Source of the DNA: Thermoproteota archaeon
GTDB taxonomy: Archaea; Thermoproteota; Thermoprotei_A; Sulfolobales; Ignisphaeraceae
Direction of reading: 5' to 3'
DNA: 64,000 nt
Assembly (NCBI GenBank): GCA_030550585.1
Contig: JAUQPB010000004.1
Coordinates: 32,001-96,000 of the forward strand
The notes beneath the pieces are model-generated. The model had not been told where the DNA came from. It saw nothing but the letters and a program-made list of their open reading frames with translations, and ran no database searches. Below, in pieces: positions 2,078 to 53,838 of this stretch. Within the stretch, counting starts at the first letter, position 1, and the number at the start of each line of letters is the position of its first letter. The position numbers were made by a program, and so were the translations under genes.

Positions 2078-3085
2078 TCATTTGAATCCCGGTGGCCTCA
2101 CCTTTAAAACATCTTTGTTTACCAGCGTTGGAGGCTCTCTACCCTCGTAAAATGTTATGAGATTTTCTGCAACTAGCTCCGCCATGGCATGTCTAGCCTC
2201 ATATGTTGCAGAGCCTATGTGAGGTGCTAACACAACATTTTTAAATGCTGTTAGTGGGTGGTTTGGTGGGAGAGGCTCCTGCTCAAAAACATCTAGGCCT
2301 GCACCAGCTATCCAGCCCTCAGCCAAAGCCTTTACCAAAGCGTTTGTATCTACGACAGCGCCCCTCGCAGTGTTTATCAGTATAGCTGTCCTCTTCATTT
2401 TTCTAAGCCTCTCCTCGTTGATGAGATGATATGTTTCTTTTGTTAAGGGTACGTGTATCGAAACTATATCCGCTTCCTGCAAAAGTGTGTCAATATCCCT
2501 ATACTCCGCGCCCAGCCTCTTCTCCAATTCCTCGTTTCTCGACCTGCTATAGTATATTATTTTCATGCCAAATGCCTTGCCTATCTCAGCGACTCTAGAG
2601 CCTATTCTGCCAAGGCCTATGATGCCAAGTGTCTTTCCCTTCAACTCAACGCCTAGCATCATGTGTGGGTGCCAGCCTGTTCTTGTTCTCCACCACTCAC
2701 CCCACCTAACAAATGTATCAGCCTCGACAATTCTTCTCGCAACAGCTAGTATCAAGGCCCATGTAAGCTCGGCTGTAGCCTCTGTCAAAACATCTGGTGT
2801 GTTGGTAACATAGATTCCCAGTCTGGTTGCACATGCAACATCTATATTGTCATAGCCAACAGCGTACTGAGCGACAATCCTAAGCCTTTTGGCTTGCTGC
2901 AAAAGGTTACAGTCTATTCTATCACTAAGCATAGATGCTAATGCATCGACCTCCTTGGCTTTTTCAAGAAGAACCTCATATGGTGGGGGCTGATACCTGT
3001 CCCAGACCTCAACCTCATAATATTTACTCAATTTCTCAATTACATTAGGAAAAAGCTCTCTTGTTACAAAAAGTTTTGGTCTCAT
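2078..3085 (-). CDS. gyaR: Glyoxylate reductase (D-2-hydroxyacid dehydrogenase family)
   Basis: [31 protein letters not shown] and APHIGSAT motifs. GAGGTG RBS before ATG 3085. Confidence 0.9.
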
Positions 3086-3336
3086 GGATCGCACCTCAAC
3101 TTGTTGTAATATCTCCGTAATATCTAGTATATTAAATCTTTCGCCATACCCATAAATATTTGATTTACAAAGCTATTTCCCGCATCCAAATATCCTCAGC
3201 ATCTGACAGTAGCATAATCTGTTTCTGCAGATGGTAGCCTATCCTATTACACATTTTGCTTAGGATCTTCTAAAGGTGTTTAAGCCAGAGAGTGGTAGCA
3301 AGCCCAAAATTTATGATGATAAATGTAGTTAGGCAG

Positions 3337-5097
3337 CTACGAATAGAGGGAAACATGCTGCTTTATATAAGATGGAATTTTGTTAAACAAAGCTGATATT
3401 ATTAGAGTAGACAGTTTTGGCTGTCTATCTCTTGTGTATACACCTTTTCTATTTAATATTGTTCTACCTGGGCTTTGAGGTGTTCTAAAATCTGCGAAAT
3501 TCCATATATGTAGCCCCACTATGTAGTCTCTCTTCATAAGTGCCTCAATGTAGTTTTTGATTAGCTCTGCTTGATATTCCTCTGACCACATCTGTGGCGG
3601 ATCGCTGTGCAAACCTAGAATTGCGTCTGCCCCAAACTCTGTTATTATTATTGGTTTTTCTGGGAATTTGCTATGTATTTGCTCTAGCTCGTTCAACATA
3701 TTTTCTACGCCTTTTTGTATATCTCCCCATTCAGAGTACCAGCCACGATAGTAGTTAAGTGATATGATATCCACATAGCCTAGTGCAAGGTCTTTAAACG
3801 ATTTGTGAGAGGCAAAGGTTACCGGCCTTGTCGGGTCGATGGATTTTACAAACTCTGAGAGTTTTCTTATAGCCTCTGCAACCTCTGGCAAGTCGCTTGG
3901 AGGTTCATTCATAATGCTATACATTATTACTGAAGGTCTATTCTTGTGCTGTCTAACCATTTCTTCTATGAACCTCTTCGCCTTTGCCAAATACTCTTCA
4001 TCTCTAAACAGCTTTGCAATATCCTCTGTGTTGAGAAGCCTTTCTATGCCTGAGTAGCATAGAGGTGGCTCTAGAATAACCATAAAGCCAAATTCGTCTG
4101 CTAGATCTAGATGCTCGTTAGAGTATGGATAGTGAGAGGTTCTAAATGAATTTGCACCCATTTTCTTCATAAGATAGAAGTCTCTTACAAGAACAGCTCC
4201 CGGAAGATACTTACCTGTAACAGGAAAGTCCTCGTGTCTTCCAAAACCTTTGAGAAACACCGGCCTATCGTTTAGATATATTCTTCCATTCCTTACTGTA
4301 ATGCTTCTAAAACCAATCCGCTCGTAGATGGCATCCCTTAAAATGTTGCCAACATAAACCTCGACAACAAAACTATATAGATTTGGCTCCTCAGGCCCCC
4401 AAGGCTTTACACCATCATATCTCTTCTCAAATTTCAGTACACCAGGTTTAGCATTTCTGATATAGTCTTCTGAGATAACCTTGCCAAGCTCTTTATCCAT
4501 GAGAGCAACCCTAACATCAACTTCTCTATCACATACTATCTCAATATCTGCTTTAAGGGCTCCACCATGATTTGTAGCAATTGTTACATCATTTACATGA
4601 CAAACATCAGTAAATTCCAAGTAAACGGGTCTGTGTATACCGCCATAGTGAAAGAAGTCAAAGGCAGTTAAATTAAGCTCCTTTGCTGGAGGTATATTGA
4701 GTATCGATGGAGTGTTGTCTATCCTCACCACAACTTTGTTTAAATCGCCAAATCTTATGCTATCCACTCTAAACTTGAATTGTGTAAAAGACCCTTCATG
4801 CTCGCCAACAAACTTCTCATTTATCCATACGCTAGTCTTGTACCCAGCACCCTCAAATACAATCCAAGCCTCTTTACAATCCAAGAGCCTATCAACATAA
4901 AAATTCTTTTGATACCATGCAACACCTGTAAACTGATCCCATTCAGGGTTTTGCTCATTCCAAGACGATGGAACGTATATTAAATCGCTAGATTCAAAAC
5001 CTCTGAACCAACCCTCTTTATCGCCAGCAAGATTTCTATCAACTCTAAATTTCCAGAAGCCTTCGAGAGATATTTTTGGTCTAAACCAAGATTTCAT
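3337..5097 (-). CDS. uidA: GH2 beta-glucuronidase
   Basis: FDFFHYGGIHRPV, ANSFRTSHYPY, acid/base NEP, nucleophile ITEFG, WNFADF and the NxKG (NRKG) glucuronidase motif. Confidence 0.9.
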   Translation of the reverse strand: MKSWFRPKISLEGFWKFRVDRNLAGDKEGWFRGFESSDLIYVPSSWNEQNPEWDQFTGVAWYQKNFYVDRLLDCKEAWIVFEGAGYKTSVWINEKFVGEHEGSFTQFKFRVDSIRFGDLNKVVVRIDNTPSILNIPPAKELNLTAFDFFHYGGIHRPVYLEFTDVCHVNDVTIATNHGGALKADIEIVCDREVDVRVALMDKELGKVISEDYIRNAKPGVLKFEKRYDGVKPWGPEEPNLYSFVVEVYVGNILRDAIYERIGFRSITVRNGRIYLNDRPVFLKGFGRHEDFPVTGKYLPGAVLVRDFYLMKKMGANSFRTSHYPYSNEHLDLADEFGFMVILEPPLCYSGIERLLNTEDIAKLFRDEEYLAKAKRFIEEMVRQHKNRPSVIMYSIMNEPPSDLPEVAEAIRKLSEFVKSIDPTRPVTFASHKSFKDLALGYVDIISLNYYRGWYSEWGDIQKGVENMLNELEQIHSKFPEKPIIITEFGADAILGLHSDPPQMWSEEYQAELIKNYIEALMKRDYIVGLHIWNFADFRTPQSPGRTILNRKGVYTRDRQPKLSTLIISALFNKIPSYIKQHVSLYS

Positions 5098-44680: not shown

Positions 44681-46042
44681 ATGGACTTGATTGACATGGT
44701 TGTAAAGGGTGTTAGGAAAGCGGAGCAGCTGGGGGCATCGGAGGCTGAGGTGTACATCGTTAGAGAGTATTCAACGTCTATAACCGGGGATAGCAGGGGT
44801 GTGGAGTCTATATTAAGCGGAGAATCTATAAGCGCGTTTGTGAGGGTTGTTATTGGGAAGAGGCTGTCTGTGCAAGGAGCAATGATGTCAAAGCCAAGTG
44901 ACATTGAAACGCTTGTCGAAAACGCTGTTAAGATTGCTAGGGCATCTCCCGAGGACCCCAACTGGGTTTCGCTTCCAAAGAGAATCTCCTCATCGCAGAT
45001 AATGGACATTGTCGATGAGAGGGTCAAAAGCCCTGACATAGAGTTCTATACACAGATTGTTAAGGAGGCTCTTGGAAAGCCTAGCGAGATAAGCAGAAAT
45101 GTCTTAGTTAATCAGGCAGGGGTCTCGCTGTCGTTTAGCGAGAGGGCTATTGGGAATAGCTACAGCTCCCCCATATCCTATGAGAAAACAGATTTTGTGT
45201 TTGGCATAGAGGTTAAAGCTGTTGGAGAGGGCTCTGAGTCTAGCTTCCACAGCTACTACAACGCGCCAACCCTAAAAGAGTTTAAGATGGATAAAGTTGT
45301 TGAAGAGGCTACAAAGATCGCTTTGTCAACCCTTAAGGCGAAGCCCGTTGAAACAGGTGTCTACAAAGTTGTGTTCACCCCAAGGGTTTTCGCATCAATT
45401 CTACAAGCACTTATAGTACCTGCTGTCAGAGCTGATATGGTTCAGAAGAAGAGGTCTCCACTAGCAAACAAGCTATTCTCTGAAGTGCTATCACAACAGC
45501 TAACAGTTATAGACGATGGGGCAGCTCCAAACATGCCTGGGTCGGGGCCGTTCGACGATGAGGGTGTGGCAACGAAGAGGAAAACAGTTTTTGATAGAGG
45601 TGTTCTGAGAACATATCTATACGATACATATACAGCTAACATCGATGGCAGGGAGAGCACCGGAAATGCTAGGAGATCGGGTTCATCGAATACATTTCCA
45701 GACGCCACAAACATTATTGTGCTCCCAGGGACAGAGCCCCTGGATTCCATTATAAGAGATGTTAGAAGAGGTATAATAGTCTATGGAACCATAGGAGAGT
45801 GGCTATCGAATGCTGTTAGCGGTTTTCTCAACGCAACTGTAACACACGGTCTACTGATAGAGGGTGGCGAGATCAAACAGGCTGTTAAAGGCGTTGTCAT
45901 ATCTGGTGATATATACAAGATACTCAAAGACAATTTGATCGGCATTTCAAAAGAATTCGACGCAGTTTCAAACTATTTGGTGCCTGCCATAGCTGTTGAC
46001 GGGGTAACCGTTGCTGGTGAGGGTAGTGGACAGCGTTTTTAG
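44681..46042 (+). CDS. pmbA: PmbA/TldE family protein
   Basis: AEVY, PFDDEGV and STGNARR motifs, no HExxH, directly follows tldD. Confidence 0.9.
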   Translation: MDLIDMVVKGVRKAEQLGASEAEVYIVREYSTSITGDSRGVESILSGESISAFVRVVIGKRLSVQGAMMSKPSDIETLVENAVKIARASPEDPNWVSLPKRISSSQIMDIVDERVKSPDIEFYTQIVKEALGKPSEISRNVLVNQAGVSLSFSERAIGNSYSSPISYEKTDFVFGIEVKAVGEGSESSFHSYYNAPTLKEFKMDKVVEEATKIALSTLKAKPVETGVYKVVFTPRVFASILQALIVPAVRADMVQKKRSPLANKLFSEVLSQQLTVIDDGAAPNMPGSGPFDDEGVATKRKTVFDRGVLRTYLYDTYTANIDGRESTGNARRSGSSNTFPDATNIIVLPGTEPLDSIIRDVRRGIIVYGTIGEWLSNAVSGFLNATVTHGLLIEGGEIKQAVKGVVISGDIYKILKDNLIGISKEFDAVSNYLVPAIAVDGVTVAGEGSGQRF

Positions 46043-46769
46043 GAATGAGCTTAGAAACAGGATATGGAGAATCATGGAGGAGAGGAACATAGCTAGGTTC
46101 CCCAGACCAGTGTTCGGCAGAATACCAAATTTTGTTGGTGCGGAAGATGCTGCGCAAAGACTTGTCCAATCCGATCTATTTAAGAGGGCGATGGTAGTCA
46201 AGGTGAATCCCGATGCTCCGCAGAAACCCGTTAGAGAAGCTGTTTTGAAAAGCAACAAAGTTTTGGTCATGCCAACACCCAGAATCTCCAGGGGTTTCCT
46301 ACTTCTAGACCCCAAGAAGATAAGCCCAAACCTCTATACAGTTGCATCAACAATCCAAGGCGCTTTCAAATATGGAACATTTGTAGACCCCCAAGACCTT
46401 CCAGAGATAGATCTGATTGTTGCCGGCTCTGTTGCTGTCAGCATCTATGGCGAGAGACTTGGAAAAGGGGAGGGGTACTCAGAACTCGAATACTCAATAC
46501 TAAGAGAATTTGATAAAGCCTCTGAAGAAACCCCCATAGTAACAACTGTACACGATGTGCAGGTTGTTGAGCACCACATACCCCTAGCACCATGGGACTT
46601 CACAGTAGACTACATATTCACACCAACAAAAGCAATGAAATGCCTAGGCGAAAAGCGAAGACCACCTGGAATAATGTGGGAGCATCTACCAAAAGAAAAG
46701 ATAGAGTCTATACCAATACTCAAAAAACTAGCGCAGCAAAGAGATGCTGCGGCAAACCCGTGGGTCTAG
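46026..46769 (+). CDS. 5-formyltetrahydrofolate cyclo-ligase family protein (MTHFSD-like)
   Basis: [22 protein letters not shown]...[12 protein letters not shown] and TTVHDVQ motifs. Confidence 0.9.
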
Positions 46770-47011
46770 CCCCTATCAACCTTCTTAATCTCATAATCAT
46801 TAAAGAACTTTCCAATGAGTCCAATAATGGAGTCTAAAACCTTTACACTATCCAAAGTGTTTTCAACTATTATCAAGAGCCTGTCATGAGATGTTATAAC
46901 GGCTTTGACGCTCTTTCTAATCCACGGATCTCTATCCATAAGCTCCTTCAACTCTTTTCTAAGTAGATGGGCAACAATGCCAGGGTTTCTACGCTCAATC
47001 TCTACGAACAT
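46766..47011 (-). CDS. Small hypothetical protein
   Basis: 81-aa ORF with ATG start and genome-like composition. Confidence 0.6.
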   Translation of the reverse strand: MFVEIERRNPGIVAHLLRKELKELMDRDPWIRKSVKAVITSHDRLLIIVENTLDSVKVLDSIIGLIGKFFNDYEIKKVDRG

Positions 47012-47205
47012 CTCTATTCAGTAAAGAGCATACTTTAGAGAGGCTAATATTACACAGCTAAAATTGGTCGCAGATCTCAGTGTCTGTTAAGCAGGTAATA
47101 TAGAAGTTAATGTTCTATTTATACCAGATCCACTGATATTCTACAGGCAGATAACCAGAAAGTCTTTTATAGTTCTACAAAAGAACCTCTATTCGATGAA
47201 CATCC

Positions 47206-47388
47206 ATGGAATTGGGTATAAAAGATTTTTTATGGGATTTTGCTATTGCGATACCTCTATTCATATACGTCATGCTTATAGTGTCTATAGTGACAAAACG
47301 TTTATACGACTATATGGTTGGGAGGGGGGTTAAGAGAAACGTTGCTGTTTACTACAATAGAAAGATTATACATGTTTCAACAGGTGGG
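47206..47388 (+). pseudogene. 5' part of a dolichol kinase/phosphatidate cytidylyltransferase-like membrane protein gene, interrupted by an insertion
   Basis: VYYNRKIIHVSTGG motif ends at 47388 and continues in frame at 51185 (VIALLVPMIF). Confidence 0.85.
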
Positions 47389-47464
47389 CGTGGACAATCT
47401 GCGTGGCTATGGCTAGTGCCACAAGTGCAAATACTATCACAAACGCTATTCGCTTCAGCAACAT
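47387..47464 (-). pseudogene. Truncated secreted-protein gene (signal peptide only) at the left edge of the cargo
   Basis: Translates as MLLKRIAFVIVFALVALAIATQIVHA with a GGGTG RBS, and is cut exactly at the insertion junction. Confidence 0.6.
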
Positions 47465-47553
47465 GGGGCACCCGTTACCATTAGATGCGTAGAAGAAATT
47501 AAACACCCCGGTCACCACAACAACTAGCAGTGTATATAAACATCTTGTAGCTA

Positions 47554-48138
47554 GTGCATCTACTGGTAGAGAGCATGGGCATGCAGGCGGCAAAGGCCTT
47601 GAATGCCCTGAGGCAGATCCAGAGCAAGAAGATATTCGGGCTCGAGGTCACGGAGCTGGGCAGGCGCTTCACCTCGAGGCCCGCGCTGGAGGACGCCCAG
47701 GTCGTTGGAGACACAATTGTGCTCCCAACGATGGACAGGCTGTGGAGGGGGTTCATACCCGTCTATCCCCACCTCTTCATAGCCAACTACCCCGCAAAAG
47801 ACGTCGACTATGTGGGCGACCACGCATACGACATCCTGAAGCTGCACCCGCTCTACAAATCTGTTGAGGAGGTCGACGGAAGGGTGTGGGAGTGCACAGT
47901 CGAGCGCGTAGACGGTGTGAGGTTCAGGTCTGTGGACACCTTCGAGACAGCAATTCTCCTGAACCTCGAGGTGAACCCGGGGATAACATATGGCGGGTTG
48001 CTCAGCATACTCTATGATCTGGTTCCAGACGACATGCCCGAGAAGAAGGATGCTGGGAGGTGGAAGATACTCGAAATTGCATTGGCCCAGCTCATAGGGA
48101 TGCTGGCCTACGAGGCCAGCCTCATAGAAATCATCTGA
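47554..48138 (+). CDS. GC-rich hypothetical protein (cargo)
   Basis: 194-aa ORF whose GC content is clearly above that of the flanking genes; start uncertain. Confidence 0.7.
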   Translation: MHLLVESMGMQAAKALNALRQIQSKKIFGLEVTELGRRFTSRPALEDAQVVGDTIVLPTMDRLWRGFIPVYPHLFIANYPAKDVDYVGDHAYDILKLHPLYKSVEEVDGRVWECTVERVDGVRFRSVDTFETAILLNLEVNPGITYGGLLSILYDLVPDDMPEKKDAGRWKILEIALAQLIGMLAYEASLIEII

Positions 48139-48351
48139 TTTTCTTCTCCACATACACACTTAGCATGTAATTTCATTGGTATAGTAAACGGCTATTATTC
48201 TACATGCGCTTTAATTCTACCATCTAACCTCTACATAAGTGCTAGTTTAGGTGAGGATGATATGGCTTGCCGGGATTCTAGATTTATCTAATTTATTAAC
48301 TAGATTTATTAAGTAGAGAATAGTTACAGGTTAGTTAAGCTCTGATGGATT

Positions 48352-49206
48352 GTGGTGGTGCATGTGAGTGGGGAGAGGACAAGGTGTAGAAATACTACTC
48401 TCGTGCTTGGGGTGATCATTGCTATTCTCATAGGGGCTCTCGCCGGAACACTATACTACAGCAACATGCTCTTGAGTAGCAAGGACTCCTACATCGAGGA
48501 TCTGCAAAACCAAAACAGAGAGCTACAGAACCAAATCAGTGTTCTGAGAAATTGGCTAATTGGAAACAAAACATATTGTGAAAAAGAGATTGCGGATTTG
48601 CAAAACCAAAGCAAAGAGTTGAATGAGCAGATCAATATCTTGGCTAGCTGGCTAGCTGGGAATAGAAGTAGCTACGAAGAGAAAATTAAGAGTTTGCAAA
48701 AGCAGATCACAGACCTGCAAAACCAGGTCACATCCCTAGAGACACTAAATATGCAACTCCAAACTTGGTTAGAAGGAAACAAAACACTGCTTAGAGGACT
48801 TAGCGAGAATATGACAGCTTGTGTGAGAACGGTTAAGGAGTTGCAAAGCCAAATAGACAAACTTCAGAAACAGGTAAGCATGTTGACGTCGATTGTAAAC
48901 CAAGAAGAGACGGCCACACTTGAGAAGGATAAAACAATAAATCTGCGTCCAAGATCCTATCTAGGGTTCTCATATTACACACCTTATGCTGGCTACATCA
49001 CAATTACCTTTACAGCTACGGGGGCTGTGAAGCTTTGGGTTGGAAGCAGTTCAACAACACCCACATACTACTTTAGCTATTCCCCCAGTGAAACCTATGC
49101 AACAATCACAATACCTGTTACAAGAGGCACAACATACATCGTCTTTGAAAACCCAAGTTACTTCTCTGGAGTAACCATTACATATACCATTACATACACA
49201 TACTAA
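48352..49206 (+). CDS. Membrane-anchored coiled-coil protein with beta-rich C-terminal domain (cargo)
   Basis: N-terminal TM, three imperfect LQNQ...WLxGN repeats, C-terminal YAGYITITF...ITYTY domain. Confidence 0.8.
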   Translation: MVVHVSGERTRCRNTTLVLGVIIAILIGALAGTLYYSNMLLSSKDSYIEDLQNQNRELQNQISVLRNWLIGNKTYCEKEIADLQNQSKELNEQINILASWLAGNRSSYEEKIKSLQKQITDLQNQVTSLETLNMQLQTWLEGNKTLLRGLSENMTACVRTVKELQSQIDKLQKQVSMLTSIVNQEETATLEKDKTINLRPRSYLGFSYYTPYAGYITITFTATGAVKLWVGSSSTTPTYYFSYSPSETYATITIPVTRGTTYIVFENPSYFSGVTITYTITYTY

Positions 49207-49539
49207 ACCCCAAGCCAGTAGACAGCCCTCGACACAAAGCAAAATTGGAATCGACTTAACCACAGGTTTAGGCAGTGCAGAGAACCGTGACTCACAGAGC
49301 TAGCAAAATGGTTGTGGGAATTGAAGACATAGTATTTGTCTACTTAACTACTCCAGACATTGAAAAAGCCTGAGATAATATCATGGGGGTGCTGTGCACC
49401 CATCGAAGAAAGCAGCCAAGACAAATCCCCACTACAATTTTTTCTTACAACCCTGTATTTGCAGTTGCCTAAACAATTTTCTGGGGGCAGAAAAGTTTAT
49501 TAGGGTTGCTTAGGGAATTTTATAGTCGGTTGGGGACAT

Positions 49540-49884
49540 GTGTCAGAGAAGTTGTTGAAGCCTAGAGAGTTCTGCAATATTGTTGGTATTAGCTATAGGA
49601 CTTTCAAGCGCTGGGTAGCAGAAGGTAGGATACGCGTTGTGAGGACGCCTACTGGTAGAATAAGAGTGCCGTATTCTGAAGTCGAGCAAATTCTTGGAGG
49701 AAGACCAGGGCTGGAAGTTAAAGTAGAGCAAAATGTGACTTCGAGAAGGCAGTTATTGGTTGAAGTCTTCCTAATAGTAGCCGAGCTCTTTGCAGAAAAG
49801 TTCTATGGTTTAGAAAGCCGTAAGAAAGAGAAGTTTCTCGAAGGACTCAGAAAACTACTAGAGGAGGTTGAGAAGGGTGGCTAG
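49540..49884 (+). CDS. tnpA: IS607 TnpA derivative: MerR-like DNA-binding domain plus C-terminal helix, catalytic serine-recombinase domain absent
   Basis: LLKPREFCNIVGISYRTFKRW...TPTGRIRVP joins almost directly to LLVEVFLIVAELFAEKFYGLESRK. No YARVS motif; 114 aa. Confidence 0.85.
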   Translation: MSEKLLKPREFCNIVGISYRTFKRWVAEGRIRVVRTPTGRIRVPYSEVEQILGGRPGLEVKVEQNVTSRRQLLVEVFLIVAELFAEKFYGLESRKKEKFLEGLRKLLEEVEKGG

Positions 49885-51175
49885 GGTAGCGAGGACTGTT
49901 GTTGTTAGAAGCACACCTTTGCCGAAGAAGGTATTCAGGGTTTTCACAGAGCTTGAGGGAATGTACCGCAACATAGTTGAGCAGCTAGCCATGTATGCTG
50001 TGAGAAGCAATCTGAAGAGCTTCACAAAGCTGAAGGCTTTGAAGTACCGCGAAATGCGAAACCTATATCCACAGCTACCATCACACTACGCCTACACAGC
50101 ATGCCAGGATGCCTCTATGAGGGTTAAGAGCTTCCTGAAGCTGAAGAAGCTTGGCTTAGCTGAGAAGGAGTATCCAGAAGTCAAGAACATCTCTATTTGG
50201 CTTGACGACCACTTGTGGAAGCCCAATGGCCTAACCTCTATCAAGATAGCTACTCACAAGGGTTGGGTAGAAATCGAGTTAGAACCTCACAAGCAGTACT
50301 GGAAGTATATCAACAGAGGCTGGAAGCTTTCTTCAGAAGCCAAGGTAAAGCTCGATAAGAAGAGCAGGCAACTACTAGTCTACTTAACCTTCGTCAAGGA
50401 TGTCGAAGAGTATGAGCCTAGAGGGTTTCTGCCCGTTGATGTTAACGAGAACAATGTTACGGTTCTAGTTGATGGTGTAGCCTACTTGTTCGAGACGAAT
50501 TTAGAGAAGGTTGTTCTGGGATACTACTATCGTAGGAAGAGGGTTCAGGAGAAGTATGATAAGCTCTATGGTGTTGACTCAAGGATTAAGAGAAAGGCTA
50601 TGAGGAAGCTCAAGGAGCGTGAGAAGAAGAGCGATTTAAGGTGGAAGGTTGCTAACATAGTTGTCAAAGTTGCATGCAAGAAGCAGTATGCTATTGTCCT
50701 TGAGAAGCTCGGTAAGAAGCCTGCTAGCAGTATGATTAAGAGAATCAAGGATAAACAGCTTCGCCATAGAATATTCCAGGCATCTTTCAGAGGTGTTCAG
50801 AGAGCTATTGAGGAGAAGGCTAGGGAGCGTGGTGTTCCAGTAATCTACGTGAACCCGAGAAATACTTCTAAGCTATGTCCAGTTCACAACACCGAGATAA
50901 TCTATAGCAATAGCTCCAGGATTGGGAGGTGTAGTAAAAGCGGAGAGTCCTGGCACCGTGACGTAGTAGCTGTGTGGAACCTTCTTCTAAGAGCCCGCCT
51001 AGGCGATGGGGGCAGTGCTCCAAGCCTAGGTGGGTCTATCCTAGATGTGACCCGCGTGCCGTTCGGGTCGAACGCCACCCATGAACCCGCAGGAATACCA
51101 AAATCCCTGTGGGCGAGGTGGAAGTCCCTAGAGGCAACCTCAAGTGTCCCTAAACTATGTAAAACAACCCTCTAG
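49868..51175 (+). CDS. tnpB: TnpB RNA-guided endonuclease
   Basis: RuvC-I PVDVNE, RuvC-II IVLEKL, NPRNTSKLCPVH zinc-ribbon region, RuvC-III HRDVVAVWNL. Confidence 0.93.
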   Translation: MRRVARVARTVVVRSTPLPKKVFRVFTELEGMYRNIVEQLAMYAVRSNLKSFTKLKALKYREMRNLYPQLPSHYAYTACQDASMRVKSFLKLKKLGLAEKEYPEVKNISIWLDDHLWKPNGLTSIKIATHKGWVEIELEPHKQYWKYINRGWKLSSEAKVKLDKKSRQLLVYLTFVKDVEEYEPRGFLPVDVNENNVTVLVDGVAYLFETNLEKVVLGYYYRRKRVQEKYDKLYGVDSRIKRKAMRKLKEREKKSDLRWKVANIVVKVACKKQYAIVLEKLGKKPASSMIKRIKDKQLRHRIFQASFRGVQRAIEEKARERGVPVIYVNPRNTSKLCPVHNTEIIYSNSSRIGRCSKSGESWHRDVVAVWNLLLRARLGDGGSAPSLGGSILDVTRVPFGSNATHEPAGIPKSLWARWKSLEATSSVPKLCKTTL

Positions 51176-51205
51176 GGACAAACGGTTATAGCGCTTCTAG
51201 TTCCA
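50990..51205 (+). ncRNA. Putative TnpB omegaRNA (scaffold overlapping the tnpB 3' end and right end; guide from the flank)
   Basis: Stems 50993-51004/51024-51035, GACCCG/CGGGTC and CCACC/GGTGG, plus a perfect 11-bp inverted repeat GTCCCTAGAGG 51124-34 / CCTCTAGGGAC 51169-79. Confidence 0.7.
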
Positions 51206-51676
51206 ATGATATTCAGAGAGCCTTTCACACCATTTGTCTTCGCTCTCATACTAGCGGTAATAACTCTGTATCCGCATTTGAAGGGAAGTGAATTAAGCTG
51301 GTTTCAAACAAAGGACAATGCATATGAGGTGAATTTCTGTATTGCTTGGGGATCCTCTATCCTTGTCCTGTGGCTCTACCTCAACAATGCGTGGATATCT
51401 ATTTTGCCGGCTCTCTTCATATCGATAGGCGATGCTGTTACAGGTGTTGTGAGAAACGCTATATTTGGTAAAAGGACCAAGCACTGGGTTGGAAACCTAG
51501 CAATGGCTGTAACCACGATACCGATAGGCTATAGCCTAGCGGGAATCCCAGGCGCAATAGCAGGTGCCCTTGCAACAATAGCAGAGAGGTTTGAGTTTGG
51601 CTACATAGACGACAACATACTGATAACAATAGTCTCTATAGCAACTCTAATAGCTTTAAAAAGCTGGCTACCCTAA
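51185..51676 (+). pseudogene. 3' part of the interrupted dolichol kinase/cytidylyltransferase-like membrane gene
   Basis: Motifs WFQTKDNAYEVNFCIAWG, GDAVTGVVRN, TKHWVGN and IDDNILI. Confidence 0.85.
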
Positions 51677-51961
51677 ACAGTTAGAGATGACTGCGATCTC
51701 CGATTCTGAATTGTGATGAGGCCCCGCAGTGAGGAGAATATCCACATGTTTACTAGGTAGCTATAAACACCTTGGACATTAGCCAGCATTTACAGTGATG
51801 ATAAATAGTGTTGCTGACAATATCTCCGAGTACCAAGAAGAGGATAGTGGTAGTAGTCTGGGAGGCTTGCAGAGTCAAACCTGGTGAGAGCTGGTAATGG
51901 TGTACTCATCCTTCAGGACGAGGAGGCTAGAGAATAGACTAGAGAATAGAACTGTTCATTG

Positions 51962-52324
51962 CTACGGTTTTAGATATTTTTCTATTAGTTTCAAAAACTC
52001 ATCATCTCTACCTGTTTTTACTAGATACAACATTTCATCAACATCAACACTCTTTATGTGTCTGGCTATGGGATTGAGAAACAGCGTCTTGAACATTGTG
52101 TCTGCTGTAAATGTGTTTTTGTAAAATGATAAAACTATTTGGTAGAGTCTGCTGGGAGATGTGAAGAGAAGCGACATGGCATCTAATCCTGTAGCTGATT
52201 TGCAAAGCACATTTAGGATGTGCATAGCCCCGGGAACAGCCTTAGAAGCATAGCTGTATACATGGTCTCTGAGGCTCTGAACCTCACGGCTTTGAAACAA
52301 CCCCCAGTTATCCCTCCCATCCAT
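51962..52324 (-). CDS. Hypothetical protein
   Basis: ~120-aa ORF from ATG 52324. Confidence 0.6.
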   Translation of the reverse strand: MDGRDNWGLFQSREVQSLRDHVYSYASKAVPGAMHILNVLCKSATGLDAMSLLFTSPSRLYQIVLSFYKNTFTADTMFKTLFLNPIARHIKSVDVDEMLYLVKTGRDDEFLKLIEKYLKP

Positions 52325-52524
52325 TAACGAGGGCACACAGCTCCCCAAACAAATTAATAGGATTGCAAAATATTTAAGCTTTTGAGATCCAAAGCCTTTT
52401 CTTTTCCCAAAACTACTCTTACACCATGGATTTGAAGAACACTTTTCGTAGCGGATTAGATGTTGCTTTACCACGGATTAGACTTATATTCTGTAGCTTT
52501 GCAAGAAATTTGATGTGATGTGTT

Positions 52525-53838
52525 TTGGAGTCTAGCTGGTTTTTGAAGTCTCTTGAGCTTCACCAGCTGTATAGGGGAAAGATCGAGATTGTTCCAAAGG
52601 TTCCCATAACAGGTTTAGACGATTTCTCTATTTGGTATACACCTGGTGTTGCCGAGCCTAGCAAGAGGATTTATCAAGAAGGTGATGACCTCTCGTTTGA
52701 GTATACCTGGAGGTGGAACACCGCTGTTGTTGTAAGCGATGGTACAAGGGTTCTTGGCTTGGGTGGCATTGGCCCTGCAGCTGCTTTGCCTGTTATGGAG
52801 GGCAAGGCCCTTTTGTTTAAGTATCTCGGTGGTGTTGATGCCATCCCACTTGTTGTTGGTGAGAGGGATCCAGATAAATTCATCTATATTGTCAAGGCTC
52901 TTGAGCCGAGTTTTGGAGCTGTTAATCTAGAGGATATAGAGTCGCCGAAGTGCTTCTACATCCTCGAGAGGCTTCAGGAGATTCTAGACATACCTGTTTG
53001 GCACGACGATCAGCAGGGAACGGCCCTAGTAACCATAGCGGGTCTGCTAAACGCTTTGAAGATTGTCGGTAAAAAGATTGGAGATGCTAGAATCGTTTTG
53101 TTTGGCGCTGGAGCTGCAAATATATGCACATACAAGTATCTCAAGGCTGTTGGCGCGAAACCTGGTAACATAGTTGTTGTCGATAGCAAGGGGCCTTTGC
53201 ATAGGGGTAGAGCTGATTTGGAGGAGATGAAGAGGGGCAACCCATGGAAGTATAGAATTGCTGTTGAGAGCAACGCTGAAGAGGTTAGAGATGTTGCAAA
53301 GGCTTTTGAGGGAGCAGATGTCGTTATAGCAGCTTCATCTCCCGGCCCAGGCGTTATTAAGAAGGATTGGATAAGGTCTATGAACAAAGACGCCATTGTT
53401 TTTGCAGAGGCAAACCCAGTTCCAGAGATATGGCCTTGGGAGGCCAAGGAGGCTGGCGCAAGAATAGTTGCTACAGGTAGAAGTGATTTTCCGAACCAGA
53501 TAAACAACAGCCTTGGGTTCCCAGCCGTCTTCAGGGGTGTTCTAACTGTTAGAGCTAGGAAGATGACAGATGAAATGTTTTTGGCAGCTGCACACGCAAT
53601 AGCTAGGTACACAGAGGAGACTGGTCTGCACGAGGATAGGATAGTGCCGGCAATGCAGGAGACAGAGATGTATGTGAGAGAGGCTATAGCAGTGGCGGAG
53701 AAGGCTATGGAGCTAGGATATGCAAGAAGAAAGATGTCCAGAAGCGAATTGGAGAAGGAGATTAGAGAGGCTATCGAAAGACCGAGAAGGTTTATGGAGA
53801 TGGCACTGAGGGAGAATCTGGTTAAGAGATGGAGATAG
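52525..53838 (+). CDS. NAD(P)-dependent malic enzyme
   Basis: [35 protein letters not shown] and [12 protein letters not shown] motifs. Confidence 0.95.

Follow-up and report, generated by a model that had tools for sequence, protein, structure and literature searches.

How did a block of 3.8 kb, of which only the right-hand part is an insertion sequence (IS) of the IS607 family, come to split a membrane protein gene in a Thermoproteota archaeon? The locus lies in the window, a stretch of 64,000 nucleotides that was analyzed as a whole and that corresponds to G000:C6:32001-96000 in the archaeon's own genome (G000; 1.76 Mb in 7 contigs). This genome was compared as part of a set of 41, composed of G000 and 40 relatives, with G007 as the closest genome searched. 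The insert is one block, the IS within it has its own ends, the remaining DNA (the cargo) is foreign, and the junctions have the sequences described below. We lean, by a modest preference, toward a single conservative insertion of a composite circle, containing cargo and IS together, by an IS607-family serine transposase acting in trans. Because the donor was not found, this mechanism is one that we infer.

The two host ORFs (open reading frames) that border the block are in the same frame and are the halves of one gene (Table 1), which encodes a conserved multi-pass membrane protein. No Pfam family matched this protein; homologues of its C-terminal part occur in 32 of the 41 genomes searched, and the nearest named relatives by this gene are Ignisphaera metagenome-assembled genomes from hot springs. 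In G007 the gene is uninterrupted and encodes 226 amino acids, reading ...IIHVSTGGVIALLVPMIF..., which is exactly the in-frame join that the initial annotation had obtained by placing 47388 next to 51185. Window positions 46771-47388 align with bases 883-1500 of the G007 locus (L002) at 96.3% identity and positions 51184-51654 with bases 1500-1970 at 97.5%, which leaves 3,796 extra bases in the window (47389-51184), with a placement that is ambiguous by 1 base (G). In this alignment no host base is duplicated and none is lost at the insertion site. The empty-site sequence is GGTGGGGTT, that is, GGT-GGGG-TTATAG.

Contigs assembled from hot-spring metagenomes show the same occupied and empty sites. 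Logan contigs of four runs (X1 to X4) were placed on window positions 46000-53000. A 4,223-bp contig of X1 covers 46838-51061 and crosses both the host-cargo and the cargo-IS junctions, as does a 3,702-bp contig of X2 (47359-51061) for the region that it spans. A second X2 contig joins 47387 straight to 51184, skipping 3,796 bases, and a 21-kb contig of X4, approximately 96% identical to the window, contains the same empty joint, which is the sole kind of joint, other than the occupied one, in these contigs. The uninterrupted gene is therefore present in G007 and in two metagenome contigs, in agreement with the earlier view that the whole 3.8 kb is an insert. X3 yielded low-depth pieces with 0 differences from the window, several parts being uncovered at a depth of 2-9. 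The assembly may itself derive from some of these runs, so that the two studies with the insert give only partly independent support. A chimeric join of unrelated contigs could in principle create such a locus, and next to no weight is given to such an artefact, because both junctions are covered by contigs from runs of two studies (those of X1 and X2 just described, with the X3 pieces in agreement). An IS-only or cargo-only allele of the host site was found neither among the contigs of the four runs nor in the 40 relatives; the cargo at this site without the IS, which the initial annotation had named as the sign of two independent events, was thus seen in none of them.

The extent of the IS within the insert was established by comparison. 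By blastn and tblastn, neither the IS nor the cargo has a further copy in the own genome, whose other TnpB homologues, on contigs C3, C4, and C7, reach only ≤29% identity. Because there is no second copy of anything in the insert in the own genome, the ends of the IS were taken from relatives. A search of the 41 genomes with the insert DNA gave matches in 25, and these are confined to insert positions 2094-3796 (window 49482-51184) with three exceptions, which are the self match, 42 bp in G031, and a 61-bp match of the coiled-coil repeat elsewhere in G000. At the right end, 20 of the 23 rows from relatives run to ...CTAGGGACAAAC (or GAAAC/AGAC), then GG, and diverge after it; the remaining three rows are short internal matches. 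At the left end 16 rows were obtained, of which three short secondary ones were left out, and 12 of the 13 remaining copies have at least GG right before a conserved stretch CAGAAA...TTATTAGGG...TTAGGG. The lone exception is the inner copy of L032, with AG in place of GG.

The window carries the same two ends. Its left end reads TCT-GGGGG-CAGAAAAG, with the G run at 49483-49487, and its right end reads ACAAAC-GG-TTATAG at 51184/51185, with CCCTAA at 51148. Subterminal repeats, two of TTAGGG on the left and CCCTAA plus CTAGGG on the right, are conserved in relatives and are putative transposase binding sites. The IS proper, of 1.7 kb, has a GG core at both ends, no inverted repeats, and no target duplication, as is typical of IS607-type elements. 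Judged by these alignments, only 49484-51184 is an IS607-family element, as first proposed for the right ~1.7 kb, and the internal left end that had been suggested at 49482-88 is now placed at the 49483-49487 G run. The search for other IS copies to define the ends, which had been recommended, was unsuccessful in the own genome and succeeded with the copies of the relatives. Rfam gave nothing above noise in window 47000-51900. In the available part of one report, IS607 is described as inserting at GG with a preference for (G)GG and without making a duplication (PMC6188088), and the accessible text of another proposes a pathway with a circular intermediate, in which the two ends are joined and overlap by GG (PMC4058570).

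The left 2.1 kb of the insert has a different origin. It has no DNA counterpart in the 40 relatives beyond the 42-bp match in G031. Its two intact ORFs, ORF194 and ORF284, which the initial annotation had classified as non-transposon genes, are real conserved genes. ORF194 has 5 non-self relatives among 1.84 billion representatives, the closest being 42% identical, and ORF284 has 17 non-self relatives. ORF194 matches no Pfam, PHROG, or NCBIfam family. The genome has a mean content of guanine plus cytosine (GC) of 41.3%, and the value for ORF194 (Table 1) is among the highest 0.27% of its windows. Members of the ORF194 family were detected in 10 of 351 class genomes and, G000 excepted, in 0 of 25 from its own family, and the ORF284 family was detected in 59 of the 351 at E≤1e-6, with many of these matches being to the coiled coil only. 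In G034 the ORF194 homologue is situated between a pair formed by a 620-amino-acid AAA_10/TraG-P-loop ATPase and a 749-amino-acid membrane protein on one side and a 639-amino-acid TrwB/TraG-D coupling-type ATPase on the other. G191 has the same pair of ATPase and membrane protein, with a related element of helix-turn-helix (HTH) protein and TnpB about 650 bp from the ORF194 homologue. None of these conjugation genes was found in G000. The lack of a second own copy and of related DNA in the relatives, the high GC content of ORF194, the patchy distribution of its family, and the context of conjugation ATPases together indicate that the cargo is foreign, apparently plasmid-like DNA joined to the left end of the IS.

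The search for the donor locus of this DNA, which had been proposed as a check, gave no result in the own genome or in any collection searched. No close relative was found in the own genome, in the 40 relatives (with the insert DNA), or in the 351 class genomes, and none of ORF194 in viral contigs, a plasmid collection, metagenome contigs, or species-representative genomes. A word search of 5.8 billion proteins with ORF194 retrieved only the protein itself, and an exact 31-nucleotide pattern of the cargo had 0 matches in metagenome contigs.

The right junction, ACAAAC-GG-TTATAG, identifies the last two Gs of the empty site as the target core. The outer left junction is one G short of a canonical IS607 left junction, as GGTGG-GG is expected and the window reads GGTGG-GC-GTGGAC; the X1 and X2 contigs show no indel at this position. 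A copy of the IS in G007 (contig C8) provides an in-family control with an empty site. It reads ...CAGGGG-CAG on the left and ACAAAC-GG-CTACATAC on the right, where G000 reads ...TTAGGGGCTACATAC, so that a canonical insertion keeps all of the target Gs (four) on the left and GG on the right. A further copy in G007 (contig C1, L029) was considered as a control and ruled out, as it is nested in another 511-bp insertion. In the part available of a study of TnpA(S), circular DNA whose core was GC continued to be inserted at G-rich GG targets, and the products had GC at the left-end junction and GG at the right-end junction (Zedaveinyte et al., PMC10690162). Because the left-GC/right-GG combination in the window matches this outcome, as far as it is described there, a serine-transposase origin of the host-cargo junction is indicated. 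By this analogy, the junction points to a signature of IS607-type recombination with an incoming partner that had a GC core. Of the initial statement that both outer junctions contain GG, the right-hand half holds, whereas on the left a GC core is the better reading. Both outer junctions are G-rich and free of duplication, as in IS607 recombination, and the TTAGGG repeats of the real left end are missing from the outer left site.

In the sequence of events that we favor, the donor replicon would have carried the IS with its left end against the cargo, and would probably have been conjugative-plasmid-like or an integrated conjugative element, from another Thermoprotei lineage. The core of the true right end (ACAAAC-GG) would have recombined with an upstream site about 2.1 kb to the left of the real left end. 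This surrogate site would have been without transposase-binding repeats, and its core would have been either GC or, with one G lost afterwards, GG. The cargo and the IS would then have been released together as a circle, whose right-end/cargo junction would have recombined with the GG target in the G run of the host gene (GGTGGGGTT). The need for a transposase in trans follows from the state of the element, as the tnpA product in the window has lost its catalytic domain. Its sequence aligns with 215-216-amino-acid copies from G006 and G023 at the HTH and over the last 45 residues, and the approximately 100 residues between, the serine-recombinase core including YARVSSSDQ, are missing from it. 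With the IS607 model of NCBIfam (NF033518) it scores 40.6 bits against a cutoff of 110, compared with 187.4 for a copy in G008 (L014), and it has no Resolvase domain, in contrast to the G006 copy (L036; 93.7 bits). In the whole genome, the same model finds solely this HTH (31.5 bits, model positions 2-46) and no other IS607 recombinase, and a tblastn search of the genome with TnpA of G008 matches only residues 3-56. Since tnpA lacks the catalytic domain and the genome contains no other IS607 recombinase, the element is stranded and cannot now move itself, and the PCR for circular intermediates suggested in the initial annotation would probably give a negative result in this strain. Mobilization in trans is evidently the norm for this IS family, because deletion and MITE (miniature inverted-repeat transposable element)-like derivatives are common in relatives.

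The combination of HTH and serine recombinase in TnpA, a trait of IS607, is thus absent from the window copy and present in sister copies in relatives, and the IS of the window is accordingly a deletion derivative of an IS607-family member. Its tnpB is intact. The product scores 52 bits with Pfam Cas12f1-like_TNB (cutoff, 26.3), 68.7 bits with TIGR01766 (cutoff, 32), and 93.1 bits with NF040570, just under the threshold of 100. It is 70% identical over 421 residues to a 432-amino-acid homologue in G008, which it matches to its end. The description of the right part as an IS607/TnpB element accordingly stands for the family and for tnpB, but the 114-amino-acid tnpA product is reduced to the HTH.

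Several points weigh against the composite circle. The catalyst must be assumed, as the transposase of the element is dead and no helper is present in the genome. Neither TTAGGG nor CCCTAA is repeated anywhere within at least 700 bp of the outer left end, and in the available text of PMC10690162 a mismatch of the core dinucleotides, or removal of the ends, abolished excision in the assay; for these two reasons, excision with a pseudo-end must be rare. The GC reading of the left junction was made post hoc, and the same sequence would result from a GG core if the homopolymer lost one G later. The control in G007 is a single case with a slightly diverged flank. The donor was not found, so that contiguity of cargo and IS before the insertion is unproven. 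The earlier proposal of excision by the true right end and a distant pseudo-left end is therefore supported in that there is one insert with a canonical right end and foreign cargo, and lacks the donor.

The last of these points is that a cargo-only circle entering the left-end core of a resident IS gives an identical final sequence. Two serine-transposase events would be involved, a canonical insertion of the IS and a later insertion of a GC-core circle, for example an aberrant by-product of the donor, into the GG core between host and left end. Under the left-GC/right-GG rule of PMC10690162, all junctions are predicted exactly by these two steps (GGTGG-GC-GTGGAC on the outside, ...CTGGG-GG-CAGAAA at the inner boundary, and ACAAAC-GG-TTATAG on the right), at the cost of an extra recombination step and of a free 2.1-kb circle without a replication gene. 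The IS-only allele that the first step would leave is missing from the 4 runs and the 40 relatives, and circularizing the cargo restores no convincing ORF, the minus-strand frame continuing for just 16 codons with a GC core. We regard this course of events as unlikely. The cargo was also considered as a small plasmid, which is improbable for similar reasons, as closing the circle gives no convincing ORF across the ends and no replication gene is present in the cargo.

Events of unrelated kinds would have to coincide closely. The cargo might have arrived first by other means, for example through capture by end joining or with an unknown integrase, and the IS later at the right boundary of the cargo, or the order might have been the reverse, without a transposase for the cargo. 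The boundary of cargo and host would provide a G-rich target, and IS607-type elements insert at nearly any GG according to the part of PMC6188088 that is available. The IS would nevertheless have had to strike within 1-2 bp of an existing boundary in a genome of 1.76 Mb; no integrase or repeat bounding the cargo was found, and no cargo-only allele was seen. Furthermore, both host junctions are at one base without loss or gain, which is typical of conservative recombination. Independent arrival of this kind is considered quite improbable.

The lack of repeats at the outer left end bears also on whether the insert is a regular, longer IS607-type transposon with passenger genes, whose own left end would be at 47389 and whose inner left end would be its own or that of a nested copy. 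The sources available mention, in the parts at hand, rare cargo genes in transposons with serine recombinase and TnpB (PMC10691335) and list IS607-clade recombinases among the integrases of genomic islands (PMC12424338), which gives this explanation some precedent. Without transposase-binding repeats at 47389, with the cargo beside none of the 13 left-end copies in relatives, and with no second copy of the 3.8-kb unit anywhere searched, it appears very improbable. The composite circle is retained here as the preferred explanation.

Differences between haplotypes suggest how the insert may have behaved after its arrival. The haplotype of X1 and X2 differs from the flanks in the window (46838-47388 and 51185-51631) at 6 of 998 bases (0.6%), with SNPs at 47104, 47379, 51226, and 51380 and with the nearest differences 9 bp to the left and 42 bp to the right of the insert. 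Within the insert there is 1 substitution in 3,753 bases (49090 G>A, in ORF284), not counting an indel of 1 bp at 51008 (Fisher p = 4.9e-4, for a comparison of two haplotypes from contigs, not reads). At 4 of the 6 differing flank sites the X1 base is that of G007. On these counts the insert appears to be of more recent date than the divergence on either side of it. The pattern fits passage of the insertion allele from strain to strain with very short coconverted flanks, and it would also be expected from copying induced by a double-strand break, that is, from TnpB homing. Ordinary recombination or small numbers could also explain it. The sequence that follows the right end is perfectly matched in the empty alleles, beside a TGGGG motif. 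An RNA-guided homing cassette of cargo plus IS that originated by an aberrant serine transposase reaction and then spread among Ignisphaera-like strains through TnpB cleavage of the empty allele and copying is improbable, if somewhat less so than the alternatives weighed above. It would explain the near-identical insert despite flank differences as close as 9 bp to the junction, and it would provide a natural example in which non-transposon genes are driven through a population by TnpB, with a composite, passenger-carrying transposon in an archaeon. In the X1 and X2 contigs, the indel at 51008 is the absence of one G from the GGGGG run at 51004-51008, inside tnpB at approximately codon 381, which would be predicted to frameshift the last ~55 residues of TnpB in that haplotype.

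To our knowledge, IS607 elements are viewed as minimal insertion sequences, which mobilize nothing besides themselves. The element in the window shares with the family (IS607 of Helicobacter pylori; ISC1904 of Sulfolobus) the order of a tnpA with MerR-like HTH followed by tnpB, the lack of terminal inverted repeats, the GG core at both ends, the short subterminal repeats, and insertion at GG without target duplication. It differs in its tnpA without catalytic domain, in the 2.1 kb of non-IS DNA in the inserted unit, and in the outer left GC without binding repeats. Mobilization of flanking DNA by one-ended or read-through events is known for ISEcp1, IS91/ISCR, Helitrons, and the 3' transduction of LINE-1. 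In these systems, as proposed here, one true end and a surrogate end carry neighboring genes along, but they do so by DDE, HUH rolling-circle, or retrotransposition chemistry, whereas a conservative exchange by a serine recombinase through a circle would have acted at this locus. With TnpB/omega-RNA homing of IS605 and IS607 elements the locus shares an intact tnpB and empty alleles that keep the exact sequence right of the right end; if homing acts here, the difference is that cargo is copied along with the IS. The engineered GC-core circles of CboIStron, as presented in the available part of PMC10690162, share the G-rich GG target and the nonmatching dinucleotides, GC on the left and GG on the right. 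They are a laboratory construct with intact ends in Escherichia coli, whereas the present case is a natural archaeal locus in which no transposon end serves as the left partner.

Two features of this locus are unusual, namely, that flanking foreign genes were inserted together with the IS and that the junctions read GC and GG. A literature search retrieved no description of flank capture by IS607, in line with the remark in the initial annotation that such gene transduction was not known to have been described in archaea, and a review on elements integrated in archaeal genomes states, in its available text, that DNA transposons of the composite, passenger-carrying type had not been detected in archaea (PMC6563490). 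If an IS607 element did bring two foreign genes into a chromosome in nature, this would demonstrate that capture of flanking DNA is possible for serine transposases. The GC/GG junction would be a natural counterpart of a laboratory result that is puzzling as given in the accessible portion of PMC10690162, and the intact tnpB beside the cargo makes it possible to ask whether passenger genes can be spread by RNA-guided homing. Based as it is on a single locus, a donor that was not seen, and proposed steps, the claim is a good lead, not a demonstrated mechanism.

Table 1. Features of the insert and of the split host gene, in window coordinates
Feature	Coordinates	Strand	Evidence
N-terminal 61 codons of the split host gene	47206..47388	+	Aligns to G007 locus L002 up to base 1500
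Outer left junction: host GGTGG, GC, then cargo GTGGAC	47386..47390	.	Sequence; contigs; empty site; in-family control
Minus-strand open frame into the left junction	47389..47593	-	ORF list
ORF194, rare family	47554..48138	+	GC 56.8%; relatives search; AF2 model
ORF284: N-terminal membrane anchor, LQNQ/WLxGNKT coiled-coil repeats, conserved beta-rich C-terminal domain	48352..49206	+	Sequence, relatives
Non-coding right end of cargo, up to the cargo-IS junction in G run 49483-49487	49207..49485	.	No DNA-level relatives
Canonical IS left end: GG core, CAGAAAAG, two TTAGGG (49500, 49510)	49484..49540	+	Alignment, motif scan
tnpA remnant, 114 amino acids: MerR-like HTH and C-terminal helix	49540..49884	+	Pfam HTH_17 only; alignment to full-length copies
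tnpB, 435 amino acids, intact	49868..51175	+	Cas12f1-like_TNB, TIGR01766, near-threshold NF040570
IS right end: CCCTAA, CTAGGGACAAAC, GG core, abutting host TTATAG	51126..51184	+	Right-end rows from relatives
C-terminal 163 codons of the split host gene	51185..51676	+	Homologues in relatives; alignment to G007

The structure of ORF194 was predicted with AlphaFold2 (AF2), and the model is confident (pLDDT [predicted local distance difference test], 87). A match was obtained for residues 97-194 only, which are winged-helix/RRE-like and align with 5v1u_A with a VIA-align Z of 9.4 and a root mean square deviation of 1.9 over 81 residues. Foldseek gave no PDB match for the model at E≤0.001, and the ESM Atlas gave only scores of 0.86 with TM (template modeling) values below 0.4. 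The model suggests that the C-terminal half is a peptide- or DNA-binding module, no more than that. The minus-strand frame at the left boundary of the cargo comprises 26-68 codons, and an internal ATG gives 26 residues that resemble a signal peptide. It has no family in Pfam or PHROGs and no tblastn match in the contexts of the ORF194 homologues. It may be the start of a truncated donor gene, although the earlier assignment of a gene cut at this boundary was not confirmed.

The gene block around the ORF194 homologues is kept in two families (L053, G034 C1:86000-102000; L057, G191 C3) and consists of an AAA_10/TraG-P-loop ATPase of 606-620 amino acids, a polytopic membrane protein of 685-749 amino acids, and the ORF194 homologue; in G034, the 639-amino-acid TrwB/TraG-D-like ATPase comes next. 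This block looks like an integrated archaeal conjugative element. C-terminal domains of the ORF284 family are encoded 20-25 kb away in G034 and G197.

Many copies of the IS in relatives are derivatives (L015 in G001 C85, L020 in G020 C234, L057 in G191 C3, L030 and L042 in G008 C1, and L029 in G007 C1). Some have an HTH-only or disrupted tnpA before tnpB, and others are MITE-like units of approximately 240 bp, in which a left end is joined to the final portion of tnpB with the right end. The terminal 150-190 bp, formed by the 3' end of tnpB and the right end, are by far the most repeated, with a depth in X1 of 1,130 compared to 220 for the rest. In L032 (G007 C8), at positions 501-940, a single right end is combined with two left ends in tandem, which are separated by about 180 bp. 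The inner left end follows AG instead of GG, and the element is another irregular product of this IS family. L029, at positions 342-852 compared with G000 C4:495349-495352, is a 511-bp insertion in which a MITE-like IS607 derivative is surrounded by about 270 bp of GC-rich DNA. The left junction of this insertion is likewise G/CGTGG, as at the start of the cargo in the window; there is no further similarity, and the likeness is probably due to chance.

Near the host gene, window positions 46748 and 46786 are separated by 1,658 other bases in the strain of run X4 that has the empty site, and to the left of 46771 the DNA of G007 differs and contains an ORF for a 207-amino-acid membrane protein. 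As both the X4 strain and G007 differ from the window around 46748-46786, a second indel is present about 600 bp from the insertion site.

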